Shown piece by piece: positions 2,701 to 54,973 of a DNA stretch of 64,000 nucleotides. The DNA is from a virus: the IMG/VR virus record IMGVR_UViG_3300006048_000003; one strand, given 5' to 3'. The notes beneath the pieces are model-generated. The model did not search any database, was not told the DNA's origin, and worked only from the letters and a program-made list of their open reading frames with translations. Every line of letters begins with the position of its first letter. Positions within the stretch are counted from its first letter, which is position 1. The position numbers were made by a program, and so were the translations under genes.

Positions 2701-2736
2701 GCAGACACCCCACTGCAACGGGTTAGTAGTTGCAAC
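2701..2736 (+). repeat. Dispersed CRISPR-repeat-like unit (only copy in + sense; upstream of a + strand gene)
   Basis: GCAGACACCCCAC-TGCAAC-GGGTTAGTA-GTTGCA-AC; 25 nt before ATG 2762; identical to 30492-30527. Confidence 0.9.
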
Positions 2737-2761
2737 CGTACTCCCAGCCCCGAAACTCACT

Positions 2762-2995
2762 ATGCAATACATCACTGTTCACGAAATTCGAGGAGGGGAG
2801 GACACCATAGCAGGAACTATTTCCTTCGACGGAAGGCACCTGATCCCCAACCCACCCCATGACCCTGTCCTGATTCGGTTGATTGAGGATGTTCAGGGAT
2901 CTCCTTACCCCCTTGATGATTTACACGCCAAGTTCCGGGGAATCTACCTTCATACATCCCCACCCCAGAACGTCGAGAATGTCCAGCCTGCTTAG
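2762..2995 (+). CDS. Hypothetical protein (77 aa)
   Basis: ORF MQYITVHEIRGG...; isolated + strand gene preceded by a repeat unit. Confidence 0.55.
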   Translation: MQYITVHEIRGGEDTIAGTISFDGRHLIPNPPHDPVLIRLIEDVQGSPYPLDDLHAKFRGIYLHTSPPQNVENVQPA

Positions 2996-4839
2996 GTCGG
3001 GTACGCCAAATGTGCCACGTAGTGATGCCGTCCTGACATGACGTTATCGTATCGTCTCTTGACGTGACCAATCGCTTCCGGCTCAATTCCGTGATGGTGC
3101 AATTCCGATTCAATCTCTGGCCACTTTCCCGCCAATGGGGTCAGATCCGGCATCCGCAAGCGATTTTGGGCAGCGTGATCTAAGATTTCCCTGTTCGTGT
3201 GGTTATCTTCCGCCTCGTCATCGGTCGGGAACGACAAGCCGTGATCGATCAGGACCAACTTGCCTTGCGGGGACACCAACCAGTTCCCCATATGCCTATC
3301 GGTGTTGCCAATCAAGTAATCGAATACTGCTGCCCGTGCCGCGTCGGTGTCCCCATCGTACTCGCTTCCTCGTGGTGCTCGGAAAGCGACCTGACCGTCC
3401 ATGAACTGCTGAATCGATCCAATCTCGCCGTTGTGGTTCCGAACCGTCGTTGGGGGGACTAGGTCATGCATTCCAATGACGTCTGCCAGGGCTGATGCGG
3501 CAGCTTCCCTTCGGTAATGCGTTCCAGGCTGAATAGCTGACCGCAGAGGATGTTCCCCGTTGCTCGGCTTGAAGACACCCTTCATTCCCCCTGAAAGGTG
3601 AAGCAGACGCACTTCCTTCGGATCTTTGTGACCGATGGAGGATTCCTGCTCCGCGTTCAGTTGGGAGAGCATTTCCTTCTCGGGACTCAGTGGACGTCCG
3701 GATGTCGTTTGTGTGGGCTGGACGTTCTGTGGCGTGGTGGAGACGAGATTACGGAAGATATCCCCGTGGGGGTCTTCATCGTGCGATGGTGACGCTCCCA
3801 GTGCCCTGACCGTGTGAGCGTACTCGGGTCCGGACAGGGAACCCAAGTACGATTCGAGGTAGTGCTTGAAGTTAGGCTTGCGGGCTGCATCCTGAATGTT
3901 CTGAACGTGTTGGGGGACGTTGGTGGGCTGGGAATCAGGTGGAGCATCATCGTATCGACTCGCTGCGAAGAAGTCCTCTGGGATGGTTTCATTGGGACGC
4001 CAATCGACTTGGTCGGGTTCGTACTCTAACTTGTGCAAATTCCACTGATTCTGACCGCTTGGCTGGTGTGCAAAATCTGCCTCCGGGTGATCCAAAAAAG
4101 CAATCCTTCCATTTCCCGCGAAACCATTGTTGGAAGCCCATCTTTTCCAAGAGTCGTGCAGCATTCCCACACTCACCTCGGGATGATTCCCGATTACAGA
4201 CCCAAAATGCTTTCGGAGCCAGGCCTGACGTCCCATCAGTGCAGGTAGACTTTCCGCAGGAACATCCCTAGCTACAACTCGATGAGTCAGAGGACTCGAA
4301 TATTCCAATCGGGAATAACGTGAGTATCCCCACTCTTCGGAATCAGGCACAGGATAGTTCGGTTGGGGCTGAACAGGCTGTTGTGGGGGGACGTAAATTC
4401 CTGGTGCGGGTGGATTGTAAATCCGCTTCTTGGGTGCGTAAATCGGCTGATTGGTGGGCTGCACGGGTGGAGGAAGTTCACAGTCGTCGTAGAGGCTTAA
4501 TTGTTCCGGAGGTTGTGCCAGTGACCAGAACTCAGCTTTAGGTCCACTCCCACCCGCACGATTACTTCTCCTGTCCACTGTGAAATGTCCTTGATTCAGT
4601 CCGTGGGACAGAGCCGCGTCGAGTGACGGACCCCATAGTCGAATCTTCTGAACGAGAGCTTTCTTGGTGAGTTCCCCGTGATTGGCAAGCGTCTGGTGAA
4701 CCAGGGAAAACACTTCCTCCGGTGTCTTCTGTGCCCGATTGGTGACGTATCGTTTCTGAGCCGCAGCCCCCTGCTGACGCCGACGCTGATCCAAGAACGC
4801 TTGGACTTCGGGTGTCACGACTTTTCGGGGAGTGGGCAC
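2992..4839 (-). CDS. Protein with C-terminal PI3/PI4-kinase-like (HipA-like) domain, putative virion-associated effector
   Basis: GVFKP...YRREAAA...DLVPPT...GSIQQF...FDYLIGNTDRHMGNW...LVLIDHGLSF. Confidence 0.75.
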   Translation of the reverse strand: MPTPRKVVTPEVQAFLDQRRRQQGAAAQKRYVTNRAQKTPEEVFSLVHQTLANHGELTKKALVQKIRLWGPSLDAALSHGLNQGHFTVDRRSNRAGGSGPKAEFWSLAQPPEQLSLYDDCELPPPVQPTNQPIYAPKKRIYNPPAPGIYVPPQQPVQPQPNYPVPDSEEWGYSRYSRLEYSSPLTHRVVARDVPAESLPALMGRQAWLRKHFGSVIGNHPEVSVGMLHDSWKRWASNNGFAGNGRIAFLDHPEADFAHQPSGQNQWNLHKLEYEPDQVDWRPNETIPEDFFAASRYDDAPPDSQPTNVPQHVQNIQDAARKPNFKHYLESYLGSLSGPEYAHTVRALGASPSHDEDPHGDIFRNLVSTTPQNVQPTQTTSGRPLSPEKEMLSQLNAEQESSIGHKDPKEVRLLHLSGGMKGVFKPSNGEHPLRSAIQPGTHYRREAAASALADVIGMHDLVPPTTVRNHNGEIGSIQQFMDGQVAFRAPRGSEYDGDTDAARAAVFDYLIGNTDRHMGNWLVSPQGKLVLIDHGLSFPTDDEAEDNHTNREILDHAAQNRLRMPDLTPLAGKWPEIESELHHHGIEPEAIGHVKRRYDNVMSGRHHYVAHLAYPT

Positions 4840-4847
4840 GGATTACC

Positions 4848-5543
4848 TCAACTCGGAATTTGCTGAACAGGAACAGGCTCCTCATAAGGAGCATTGCGGA
4901 GTCTTTGAATCATCTGCTCATAGTTCTGCCAATCGTGGTCACCCCAATCTTCTGGATCACCGTGCATATCAACTGAATTGACGACTTCATTAGCCAGGTG
5001 ATTCCCCAAATTCGACAGATGCACGTCTGCGTGGTAGTGGGGTTCGGTCCCGCTTGTATCTGCCGTCACAACACGCAGGTGATTACGTGGAATTTTCTTT
5101 CGATACGCTTCTGGTTCCACCATGTCTTCAGGACGAAAGTTTCCCCTCATTCGATTGTTCATGATATGCAATTCCGGGAACACTCCCGGCTGATCGATAT
5201 TCTGGTCAATGTGATCGAGAGCGTTCTCGATGTGCTCGGCAGTGAAGCGTCCTGGAACAATCCGCCCTTCATGCAAAATAACGTGTTGTTTGGGCTGTCG
5301 AAGTAGTGCAGCTTCTTGCCCACGACCCGACTCTTCTAGGGCGTCCGCCAATGGCCCTCGAACCCCGTGAAGTGGCTCGTTCTCACCCCATCGGTGGGGG
5401 TTATTGTCTGGATGATTCAGTTGCCCCATCATATTGTTGATGGTGTCCTGATCCGCGTACTGGGTTTGCTGGATTGGCACGTCCCCCCGATGGCCACGTT
5501 GACCGTGAAGGGGACGATGGAAAATGTCCTTGATGATGCCCAC
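4848..5543 (-). CDS. Hypothetical protein with TIGR02996-like motif
   Basis: GPLADALEESGRGQEAALLRQP. Confidence 0.55.
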   Translation of the reverse strand: MGIIKDIFHRPLHGQRGHRGDVPIQQTQYADQDTINNMMGQLNHPDNNPHRWGENEPLHGVRGPLADALEESGRGQEAALLRQPKQHVILHEGRIVPGRFTAEHIENALDHIDQNIDQPGVFPELHIMNNRMRGNFRPEDMVEPEAYRKKIPRNHLRVVTADTSGTEPHYHADVHLSNLGNHLANEVVNSVDMHGDPEDWGDHDWQNYEQMIQRLRNAPYEEPVPVQQIPS

Positions 5544-5575
5544 AAAAAACCCTCAACTGCGAGGAAGAGTCTTGT

Positions 5576-5611
5576 TTTACTCCTACGAACCGGGAGTAAT
5601 CGGTGTATGCC
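5576..5611 (-). repeat. Dispersed repeat-like unit (covariant stem)
   Basis: Sense GGCATACACCGAT-TACTCC-CGGTTCGTA-GGAGTA-AA; 32 nt before GTG 5543. Confidence 0.75.
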
Positions 5612-54376: not shown

Positions 54377-54390
54377 CTGGTCTACACCCC

Positions 54391-54426
54391 TTGACTCCTA
54401 CAAACCGGGAGCAATCGGATTACTTT
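54391..54426 (-). repeat. Dispersed repeat-like unit
   Basis: Sense AAAGTAATCCGAT-TGCTCC-CGGTTTGTA-GGAGTC-AA; contains the TAA stop (54420); 14 nt before ATG 54376. Confidence 0.75.
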
Positions 54427-54662
54427 TCATCAACGGGACGGGTCGTTGAAGTGCGGACCCCTTTTATGAAACCACGTCCGAACCTTCCGGTCCTGTCACC
54501 GACCTGCTCCCCGATATTCTCCGCGTCAGGAAGAATAATCTTGGGTTTTGGTTCTGGTGGGGGAGTGGGCTTCCAGGGCTGAAACACGAACAGGAACAAA
54601 CTGACAACGAACACAACACCCAACAAAATCAGCCATCCAGGGGGTTTTTCATCGTTTCTCAT
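54420..54662 (-). CDS. Small membrane protein
   Basis: One transmembrane segment. Confidence 0.55.
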   Translation of the reverse strand: MRNDEKPPGWLILLGVVFVVSLFLFVFQPWKPTPPPEPKPKIILPDAENIGEQVGDRTGRFGRGFIKGVRTSTTRPVDEK

Positions 54663-54670
54663 GGAAATCC

Positions 54671-54907
54671 TCACTTCGACTTCTTGCGTTTCCGTGTCTT
54701 CTTGGGTTCCGGGGGAGGTGGATTGACGAACTCCTCCACCTGGATTTCCAGTGCCTCGTACCGCTGCATGTCCTCTTCCCAAGCTCTTTTACAAAGTCGG
54801 TACTGAACCGGAGTCAAAACGAACCGCTGCTTCACTTTGACACGGAATTCAAAGACTTTCTGCCAATCTTCAGCGGACAAGAAGGTTTTCTTGCGTGTGA
54901 CATCCAT
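54671..54907 (-). CDS. Hypothetical protein
   Basis: SD CAGGAG before ATG 54907. Confidence 0.55.
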   Translation of the reverse strand: MDVTRKKTFLSAEDWQKVFEFRVKVKQRFVLTPVQYRLCKRAWEEDMQRYEALEIQVEEFVNPPPPEPKKTRKRKKSK

Positions 54908-54937
54908 TCGTGGGCACTCCTGTTCATGCGTCTGGGA

Positions 54938-54973
54938 TTTGCAACTACGAACCGGTTGCAATCGGCTACGGCC
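54938..54973 (-). repeat. Dispersed repeat-like unit
   Basis: Sense GGCCGTAGCCGAT-TGCAAC-CGGTTCGTA-GTTGCA-AA; contains the TAG stop (54966). Confidence 0.85.

Follow-up and report, generated by a model that had tools for sequence, protein, structure and literature searches.

A phage Cas12m locus with repeat-like units outside its array

The 64,000-nt stretch of virus record IMGVR_UViG_3300006048_000003 from IMG/VR (hereafter the window, meaning the whole stretch that was analysed) is a portion of a ~104-kb phage genome, the same sequence being present on a 103,868-nt metagenomic contig from rhizosphere samples. On the minus strand, which carries almost all of its long open reading frames (ORFs), it encodes a 634-aa homologue of the type V-M effector Cas12m, followed by a short CRISPR array. 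In addition, units resembling the 36-nt array repeat are dispersed over 52 kb of the window as ~24 copies (Table 1). A preliminary description of this DNA had listed 20 of these units and proposed that they are read by Cas12m on phage mRNAs.

Sequence comparison matched the 634-aa protein to a solved Cas12m (PDB 23vw_A, E 1.3e-43) and to Cas12m2 (8hio/8hhl, E 8e-5). Like other Cas12m effectors, it has a C-terminal zinc ribbon and a TnpB-like RuvC fold, the latter region giving weak matches to NCBIfam TnpB models over residues 497-623. In an alignment with relatives, the zinc-ribbon cysteines C582, C585, C600 and C603 are invariant, and the catalytic positions of RuvC motifs I, II and III are alanine throughout the phage clade, Asp being kept in two outliers. 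From these alanines, the Cas12m of this phage is predicted to be nuclease-dead. The D-to-A exchange was also considered as a mark of the lineage bearing dispersed units only, an idea that we rejected because the entire clade carries it.

The array shows the hallmarks of type V-M, with 36-nt direct repeats and unique spacers beside cas12m and no tracrRNA, and a promoter-like site places a -10 box 4 nt ahead of its first repeat. It was not detected by Tandem Repeats Finder. Protospacer searches with this array and with an 18-repeat array from a related locus (L006) returned nothing significant in GenBank phages, and among 54 spacers compared with all loci studied here, the only match was a self-match in the related contig L001. 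Array spacers vary between samples.

Table 1. Repeat-like units, cas12m and the array in the window. R1 and R2 are the covariance models, and L001 the related contig, described in the text.
Feature	Position	Strand	Remarks
Sole plus-strand unit	2701..2736	+	25 nt ahead of ATG of 77-aa plus-strand gene; 36 nt identical to 30492; mirror copy in L001 at 21370
Second of pair, CCG/CGG helix, altered stem	5576..5611	-	32 nt ahead of GTG of 231-aa gene
First of tandem pair	5626..5661	-	Covers stop of 170-aa TIGR02996 gene; R2 E 7e-9
Unit past portal gene, abutted by promoter-like site	6191..6226	-	21 nt ahead of 170-aa gene
Second of pair	9548..9583	-	114 nt ahead of portal start (L001: 115 nt)
Degenerate unit, first of pair	9599..9634	-	Contains stop of 99-aa ORF; R2 E 0.012
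Second of pair	9940..9975	-	31 nt ahead of GTG of 99-aa ORF
First of pair	9998..10033	-	Contains stop of 93-aa ORF
93-aa ORF	10005..10286	-	ATG 28 nt past last array repeat
CRISPR array, 7 repeats of 36 nt, unique spacers of 35-42 nt	10315..10789	-	Begins 122 nt downstream of cas12m
cas12m homologue, 634 aa	10912..12816	-	RuvC positions Ala/Ala/Ala, zinc ribbon intact; independent gene caller picks same ATG
Unit in cas12m 5' untranslated region	12845..12880	-	Directly past promoter -10 box; 28 nt ahead of ATG; arranged alike in seven relatives
In-frame unit, linker of same 670-aa ORF as 15838	15787..15822	-	L001: hairpin with different stem at homologous place
Weak unit	15838..15873	-	Interdomain linker of 670-aa ORF; R1 15.8 bits, R2 14.3 bits
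Second of pair	17434..17469	-	23 nt ahead of ATG of 285-aa TIGR02996 gene
First of pair	17480..17515	-	Contains stop of 83-aa ORF
Unit over stop of 166-aa gene	18591..18626	-	24 nt ahead of 128-aa gene, absent from related strain
Unit over stop of 84-aa ORF	19695..19730	-	27 nt ahead of 180-aa gene
Array-like unit, start of 1966-aa ORF	27504..27539	-	Inside ORF as called; GTG immediately after
Second of pair	30443..30478	-	27 nt ahead of 143-aa TIGR02996 gene
First of pair, directly past promoter-like site	30492..30527	-	
Extra weak unit, absent from original list	47546..47581	-	77 nt ahead of 366-aa gene; R1 E 8e-4, R2 E 0.02
CCG/CGG-type unit, absent from original list	49599..49634	-	R2 E 7e-6
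Weak unit, absent from original list	49660..49695	-	Pair partner of 49599 within long ORF
Unit past promoter-like site	50134..50169	-	34 nt ahead of ATG of 381-aa ORF
Unit over upstream stop	54391..54426	-	14 nt ahead of 185-aa TIGR02996 gene
Unit over upstream stop	54938..54973	-	30 nt ahead of 78-aa ORF

The dispersed units are recovered by a model trained on other phages

The dispersed units are real, and their number exceeds the original list. The array repeat and all 20 sites of that list are present where they had been placed. Because circularity had to be avoided, the covariance-model scan proposed in the preliminary description was carried out with a model (R2) built from 47 units of seven other phage loci (alignment A4), excluding the window. 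R2 recovered every one of the 20 sites at E <= 0.012, 19 of them below 0.005, and added units at 49599 (E 7e-6) and 47546 (0.02) as well as weak ones at 15838 (0.13) and 49660 (0.19); its sole further match with E < 1 was an antisense echo of one array repeat. Seeded repeat finding returned the listed sites together with 49599 and 49660, and a model made from the window sites themselves (R1) added 47546 and 15838 and nothing else with E < 0.5. A sequence-independent scan for the geometry alone gave 32 matches as compared to 3.7 in shuffled sequence, a control that the preliminary description had also named. An additional unit lies 3.8 kb past the left edge of the window (L013, 16301-16336). 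No curated RNA family in Rfam matches the units, the only Rfam match in the window being a single tRNA-Arg (48725-48798).

As had been noted, the units follow the sense of local transcription: 23 lie on the minus strand with the genes, and the single plus-strand copy (2701) precedes the sole plus-strand gene nearby, whose re-called start is backed by a 79-aa homologue in L001. The units are solitary or paired, with 10-25 nt between the members of a pair and genes filling the other intervals, rather than following the regular ~35-nt spacing of an array. All pairs are direct and 23 of the 24 units share one strand, unlike the inverted pairs on both strands that characterise repetitive extragenic palindromic (REP) sequences and bacterial interspersed mosaic elements.

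The units are selected as RNA pseudoknots resembling the Cas12m crRNA scaffold

Each unit can be drawn as an H-type pseudoknot, in which a 3-bp helix (positions 9-11/20-22) is combined with a 6-bp helix (14-19/29-34). In the window, 91.6% of the alignment cells concerned are paired, compared with 75% after shuffling, and double changes number 40 vs 12; none of 500 shuffles reached the observed values, and sliding the helix partners lowered pairing to 24-47%. All 47 units taken from other phages pair fully in the short helix, while its bases vary, pair 9-22 being G-C in 25 and C-G in 22 units and pair 11-20 being C-G in 30, G-C in 15 and U-G in 2. G-U pairs outnumber A-C combinations by 17:2 in the window and 31:2 in relatives, which indicates that it is the transcribed sense strand that folds, as RNA. 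The units are thus selected as sense-strand RNA pseudoknots with both helices covarying. Integron attC-like and IS200/REP-like DNA elements, which were also considered, were rejected because of this covariation, the G-U asymmetry and the purely direct orientation. In contigs from other samples, a C-to-U change in unit 12845 preserves a wobble pair, and two loop variants of unit 9940 restore the consensus, one giving T at position 24 and another A at position 28. Many contigs break off at units, as is usual with repeats.

The geometry maps onto the CRISPR RNA (crRNA) scaffold of Cas12m2, with a loop that is one nucleotide longer. In Cas12m2, the 36-nt repeat has a disordered 5' end and a flipped-out A, and a G:A pair closes a 6-bp pseudoknot helix stacked on the stem (PMC10442227). 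Correspondingly, A12 is invariant in all 29 window units, array repeats included, A35 is found in 25 of the 29, and the loop TTNGTA is kept. The last repeat nucleotide, read by the WED domain of Cas12m2 (PMC10442227), departs from this likeness: the 22 dispersed units of alignment A1 end in A (14), C (7) or T (1), and the array repeats in C (6) or T (1). The base at position 12 (A, T, C or G) differs between phages; together with the short helix it forms a lineage-specific signature, which the array repeats and dispersed units of one phage have in common.

Units lie at gene junctions, with the next start codon at a fixed distance

To score placement, we used the gene calls of the collection pipeline for positions 912-22816 of the window, which include 15 units. 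Nine of these were at least half non-coding as against 5.3% expected (binomial P 1e-8), and most of the remaining ones overlap a stop codon; in L001, 11 of 16 units were so placed (P 3e-10). The proposed enrichment at gene junctions is thereby borne out in two genomes. Twelve units, as well as the last array repeat, end 14-34 nt ahead of a plausible start codon, as first described, and independent gene calls agree for eight of the 12 and for the last array repeat. Shine-Dalgarno-like motifs follow 11-25 nt past the unit. The stop codon of the upstream ORF lies inside eight or nine units, eight having been counted before. At seven junctions the units form tandem pairs, 46-61 nt apart from start to start, the first unit usually covering the upstream stop and the second lying near the next start. 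Two pairs, 15838/15787 and 49660/49599, lie in frame within long ORFs, the former where conservation is poor, in the segment linking the two domains of a 670-aa protein.

At the array leader and at 6191, 12845, 30492 and 50134, the unit is immediately adjoined by a phage promoter motif (TTGCC, 17-18 nt, TAGRGT-like box). RNA made from such sites would begin with a near-mature handle, with no need for cleavage. The five units that follow a promoter run on into genes. The recurrent promoter-like motif, AATTTGCCTTT followed after ~17 nt by TGCTAGRGT or a variant, occurs on the minus strand at 12880-12912, 19967-20000, 30528-30559, 42646-42679, 48922-48955, 50170-50200 and 55381-55414; a degenerate half unit (19947-19965) comes after the promoter copy at 19997.

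This placement bears on the possibility that the units are RNA decoys, titrating a host type V-M effector or buffering the phage's own Cas12m with no regulation of the genes that carry them. Solitary repeat units of phages do act as RNA anti-CRISPRs (Racrs; PMC10651486). However, a decoy needs neither a fixed distance to a start codon nor sense orientation nor overlap with stop codons, and the idea is unparsimonious. Moreover, the units match and co-vary with the phage's own array, and its own effector would be inhibited equally. We therefore regard decoys as quite improbable.

The set of genes behind the units had been described as rich in TIGR02996 genes. Four of the ~14 genes preceded by a unit indeed carry this domain, but five other TIGR02996 genes have no unit, leaving a modest link.

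Units accompany cas12m among related phages

A search with the Cas12m protein returned 30 close homologues, none with a Pfam match, and every locus examined was phage-like in gene context. The IMG/VR search yielded neither a Cas12m relative nor the unit pattern, GenBank phages contained only one distant Cas12m homologue (25% identity), and a metagenome scan led to a single locus that was already among those compared.

The most informative relative is L001, a syntenic 103.7-kb contig whose Cas12m is 68% identical and which carries at least 16 units in 22 kb. Many of their places correspond to those in the window: ahead of the start of cas12m, past the portal gene, 115 nt ahead of the portal start, around the small ORFs that follow the array, and in the linker of the 682-aa homologue of the 670-aa protein. 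One minus-strand unit is found 33 nt ahead of the only minus-strand gene, mirroring unit 2701 of the window. The short helix is GCC/GGC or GCG/CGC in L001 vs CCC/GGG or CCG/CGG in the window, the differences being compensated.

A unit in the 5' untranslated region of cas12m recurs in the window and in L001, L004, L005, L007, L011 and L012. L012 combines it with three minus-strand units at minus-strand gene junctions. In L005 and L011, a second, degenerate array lies upstream of cas12m (L005:9453-9969, L011:5377-5775), the last unit of which ends 31-40 nt ahead of the cas12m ATG. No two repeats of these second arrays are alike, their stem changes being compensated, as though recombination between repeats were selected against, and gene callers place spurious ORFs over them. 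L004 (9533-12150) and L007 (9929-11950) have no array and carry solitary units before and after cas12m only.

Phages lacking cas12m were reached through the portal protein, for which over 100 homologues were found, many of their contigs being 101-107 kb long. Two of these loci, L014 and L015, have ~60% portal identity, are partly syntenic and have the adjacent 670-aa and 202-aa genes in common with the window; no cas12m lies within 10 kb of the portal in either locus, and their contigs do not figure among the Cas12m search matches. In the 48 kb of these two partial loci, no unit was found at E < 0.08 with either model. Comparable hits in phages without cas12m, which had been named as evidence against a role of the effector, were absent from these two loci, and within the loci sampled the units are confined to cas12m-carrying phages. 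In the cas12m-free relatives, the homologues of the 93-aa and 99-aa ORFs abut each other with no unit between them, which indicates that units entered the junctions of pre-existing genes in the cas12m-bearing lineage.

This last observation speaks against the units being neutral remnants of former arrays that decayed and took up genes. Such an origin would fit the way in which the array of the window runs on into repeat-ORF-repeat arrangements and the degenerate second arrays of L005 and L011. On the other hand, relics would not be expected to show compensatory changes in both helices, nor to occupy many corresponding junctions in L001 at 68% Cas12m identity, and we consider this origin very improbable.

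Structured elements might also act independently of Cas12m. The 5'- and 3'-terminal structures of bacterial mRNAs stabilise them, and the units could likewise protect mRNA ends against RNases or, like REP or T4 PeSL sequences, serve as short homologies for module exchange, the array merely sharing their sequence. Several rearrangements can be read in this sense. A related strain from another soil sample lacks the 128-aa gene (window 18183-18594), the break lying where unit 18591 has its 3' end, and its pair 9998/9940 has collapsed into one unit, a 20-nt remnant (window 9948-10004). Units 2701-2736 and 30492-30527, on opposite strands and separated by 28 kb, share exactly the 36 nt of the unit while their flanks are unrelated, indicating recent copying of the precise unit. 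Yet the features that contact the protein in the Cas12m scaffold are kept (invariant A12, loop TTNGTA, A35), the lineage-specific bases are common to units and array, and the units are absent from the two cas12m-free relatives. In addition, diversified stems lower recombination, and the copies are all direct and sense, unlike REP pairs. A Cas12m-independent function is therefore unlikely in our view.

The sequences behind the units have no second target in the window

A different use of the units would be the production of extra guides, each unit with its following sequence yielding a crRNA-like RNA that would guide Cas12m, as a DNA-binding protein, to promoters of the host, of competitors or of the phage itself and so serve as a hard-wired transcriptional repressor. 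Regulators of this kind are known for types I, II and V-A (PMC10120712; CreR and phage crlRNA preprints), and L004 and L007, with cas12m and solitary units in place of an array, would suit them. So would the first spacer of L001 (in the region 11824-11941), which stands behind a unit overlapping the cas12m stop and matches the 3' coding end of cas12m in reverse complement (29 of 33 nt), with a TTC flank, a known type of Cas12m protospacer-adjacent motif (PAM), on the protospacer strand; this spacer could encode a self-targeting autoregulatory crRNA or form a long stem enclosing the unit. In the window, however, the guide segments are the 5' untranslated region, ribosome-binding site and first codons of the next gene and so are constrained by gene expression, and some units lie inside ORFs. 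For none of 31 guide segments did the 64 kb contain another match better than those of shuffled guides (mismatch search and blastn-short). The partial complementarity to a promoter with adjacent PAM that defines CreR and crlRNAs was likewise not seen in the window above the shuffled level, the one self-complementary spacer being confined to L001. Extra guides, an alternative raised in the preliminary description, thus found no backing in the window, and we judge them unlikely, if slightly less so than a function independent of Cas12m.

A candidate mRNA regulon read by a putatively nuclease-dead Cas12m

Structural selection, identity with the crRNA scaffold, lineage-specific bases shared with the array and co-occurrence with cas12m together make the phage's own Cas12m the most plausible reader of the units. 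We lean, if only somewhat, towards the view that the units are crRNA-scaffold pseudoknots on phage mRNAs that are recognised by the RuvC-dead Cas12m of this phage. The recurring unit in the cas12m 5' untranslated region argues for autoregulation of cas12m at the RNA level, and in the lineage of the window this device was most likely extended beyond cas12m to ~14 further cistrons. More tentatively, and with a probability that we would place a little below even, handle recognition by the dead Cas12m may have been turned into genome-wide post-transcriptional control, in which a handle heads or separates ~14 cistrons, cas12m among them, one Cas protein gates their translation and/or mRNA fate, and the guides of the array are still used on DNA.

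In such a scheme, a unit would be situated at the extreme 5' end of a primary transcript, directly past the promoter as in the array leader, or between cistrons, and the ribosome-binding site and start codon of the next gene would occupy the guide position. The bound protein would occlude the ribosome-binding site and, like the characterised Cas12m proteins when they act on pre-crRNA, may cleave upstream of the scaffold. Translation and/or stability of ~14 cistrons, cas12m included, would in this way be tuned by a single protein. We favour occlusion of translation initiation because no more than ~35 nt separate the handle from the start codon and the ribosome-binding site takes the place of a 17-20-nt guide; protection of the 5' end by the bound protein is a possible second effect. 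Since orthologous Cas12m proteins need no RuvC activity to cut pre-crRNA inside the repeat (PMC11013384; PMC10442227), cleavage at internal units is possible as well. Binding, and the sign and mechanism of its effect, are what we infer from the sequence comparisons.

Four observations weigh against recognition by Cas12m or qualify it. Cleavage at the eight or nine units that overlap an upstream stop, or at the two pairs inside long ORFs, would yield non-stop mRNAs, which fits poorly with a simple processing role. The last nucleotide is A rather than C in 14 of 22 dispersed units, and as Cas12m2 reads that base specifically, affinity may differ. Dispersed units are missing from the 10 kb on each side of cas12m in L002, L005 and L006, and are therefore not a requirement of the protein. 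Finally, the cas12m-free control consists of two partial loci only.

Gene content of the phage

Pfam matches in the window include a Mu-type portal fused to an ATLF-like domain (6233-9433), a family A DNA polymerase, a ThyX with a LAGLIDADG insert, and UDG. The C-terminal extension of the Mu-type portal is variable: the ATLF-like metalloprotease domain of the window is replaced in relatives (P0037-P0149) by ADP-ribosyltransferase, 2'-5' RNA ligase, PI3/PI4-kinase-like, ParB-like or zeta-toxin-like domains. The LAGLIDADG-type insert that splits the ThyX gene (40701-42770) is probably an intein. Nine stand-alone genes carry the Gemmata-type TIGR02996 domain at the gene start (5657-6169, 16553-17410, 18620-19120, 28663-29637, 29984-30415, 51903-52640, 53819-54376, 56651-57496 and 58608-59504), which hints at a planctomycete host. 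Repeats of the TIGR02996 motif also occur within the portal and the 1966-aa ORF, where they were seen at the nucleotide level only and not confirmed as domain matches.

Relation to known systems and significance

Short structured intergenic repeats flanking small genes, some of them promoter-linked, are familiar from the PeSL cassettes of T4-type phages and from bacterial REP sequences. These are unrelated to any CRISPR repeat or Cas protein, and REP pairs are inverted, in contrast to the direct and sense units described here. Engineered Csy4/Cas6 or Cas12a sites between cistrons insulate or process the genes of one transcript; they likewise place a Cas RNA handle between genes but are man-made, and the phage units would be their natural counterpart.

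Among CRISPR-derived elements, standalone repeat-like units adjoin cas12a, mostly upstream, in about one third of V-A loci, and feedback on Cas expression is their presumed role (Shmakov et al. 2023, PMC10120712). Solitary repeat units, mini-arrays, CreR and crlRNAs resemble the present units in being derived from repeats, lying outside the array and often standing beside the effector gene. They comprise one or two units in the cas locus with a guide-target match at a promoter (PMC10120712), whereas here ~24 units extend over 52 kb, lie in the leaders and junctions of non-cas genes at a fixed distance to the start codon, and have no target match in the window. Racrs are, as here, solitary repeat mimics encoded by phages (PMC10651486), but they mimic host repeats and block host Cas, whereas the present units mimic the phage's own array, adjoin its own effector gene and sit in coding transcripts. 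MmCas12m, Cas12m2 and GoCas12m are homologous effectors of ~600 aa with a 36-nt repeat, a scaffold of pseudoknot and stem and no tracrRNA; they bind DNA, do not cleave it, and process pre-crRNA independently of RuvC. The protein described here differs in being phage-encoded, in having alanine at all three RuvC positions clade-wide, and in that its handles are also found on mRNAs. A 2026 preprint (10.64898/2026.09.14.751636) presents what it regards as the first phage Cas12m; the D-E-D triad of that protein is intact, and dispersed units are not mentioned. In keeping with the preliminary description, whose author knew of no such arrangement, our literature text searches found no handles spread through the mRNA leaders of a genome.

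The repeat-like elements so far known outside arrays come singly or as two units, and either regulate cas genes or counteract host immunity. Here, the handle of a class 2 effector is distributed across a phage genome, in the leaders of ordinary genes; it is clearly selected for its structure and occurs in association with the effector gene. Should these handles be read by Cas12m, CRISPR effectors would be open to exaptation as sequence- and structure-specific mRNA-binding regulators, and the phage would hold the first natural mRNA regulon of a Cas effector. Such a regulon would set a natural precedent for engineered Cas handles in operons and offer a compact protein-RNA pair for synthetic translational control. 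It would also offer a reason why phages carry nuclease-dead type V systems that lack adaptation.

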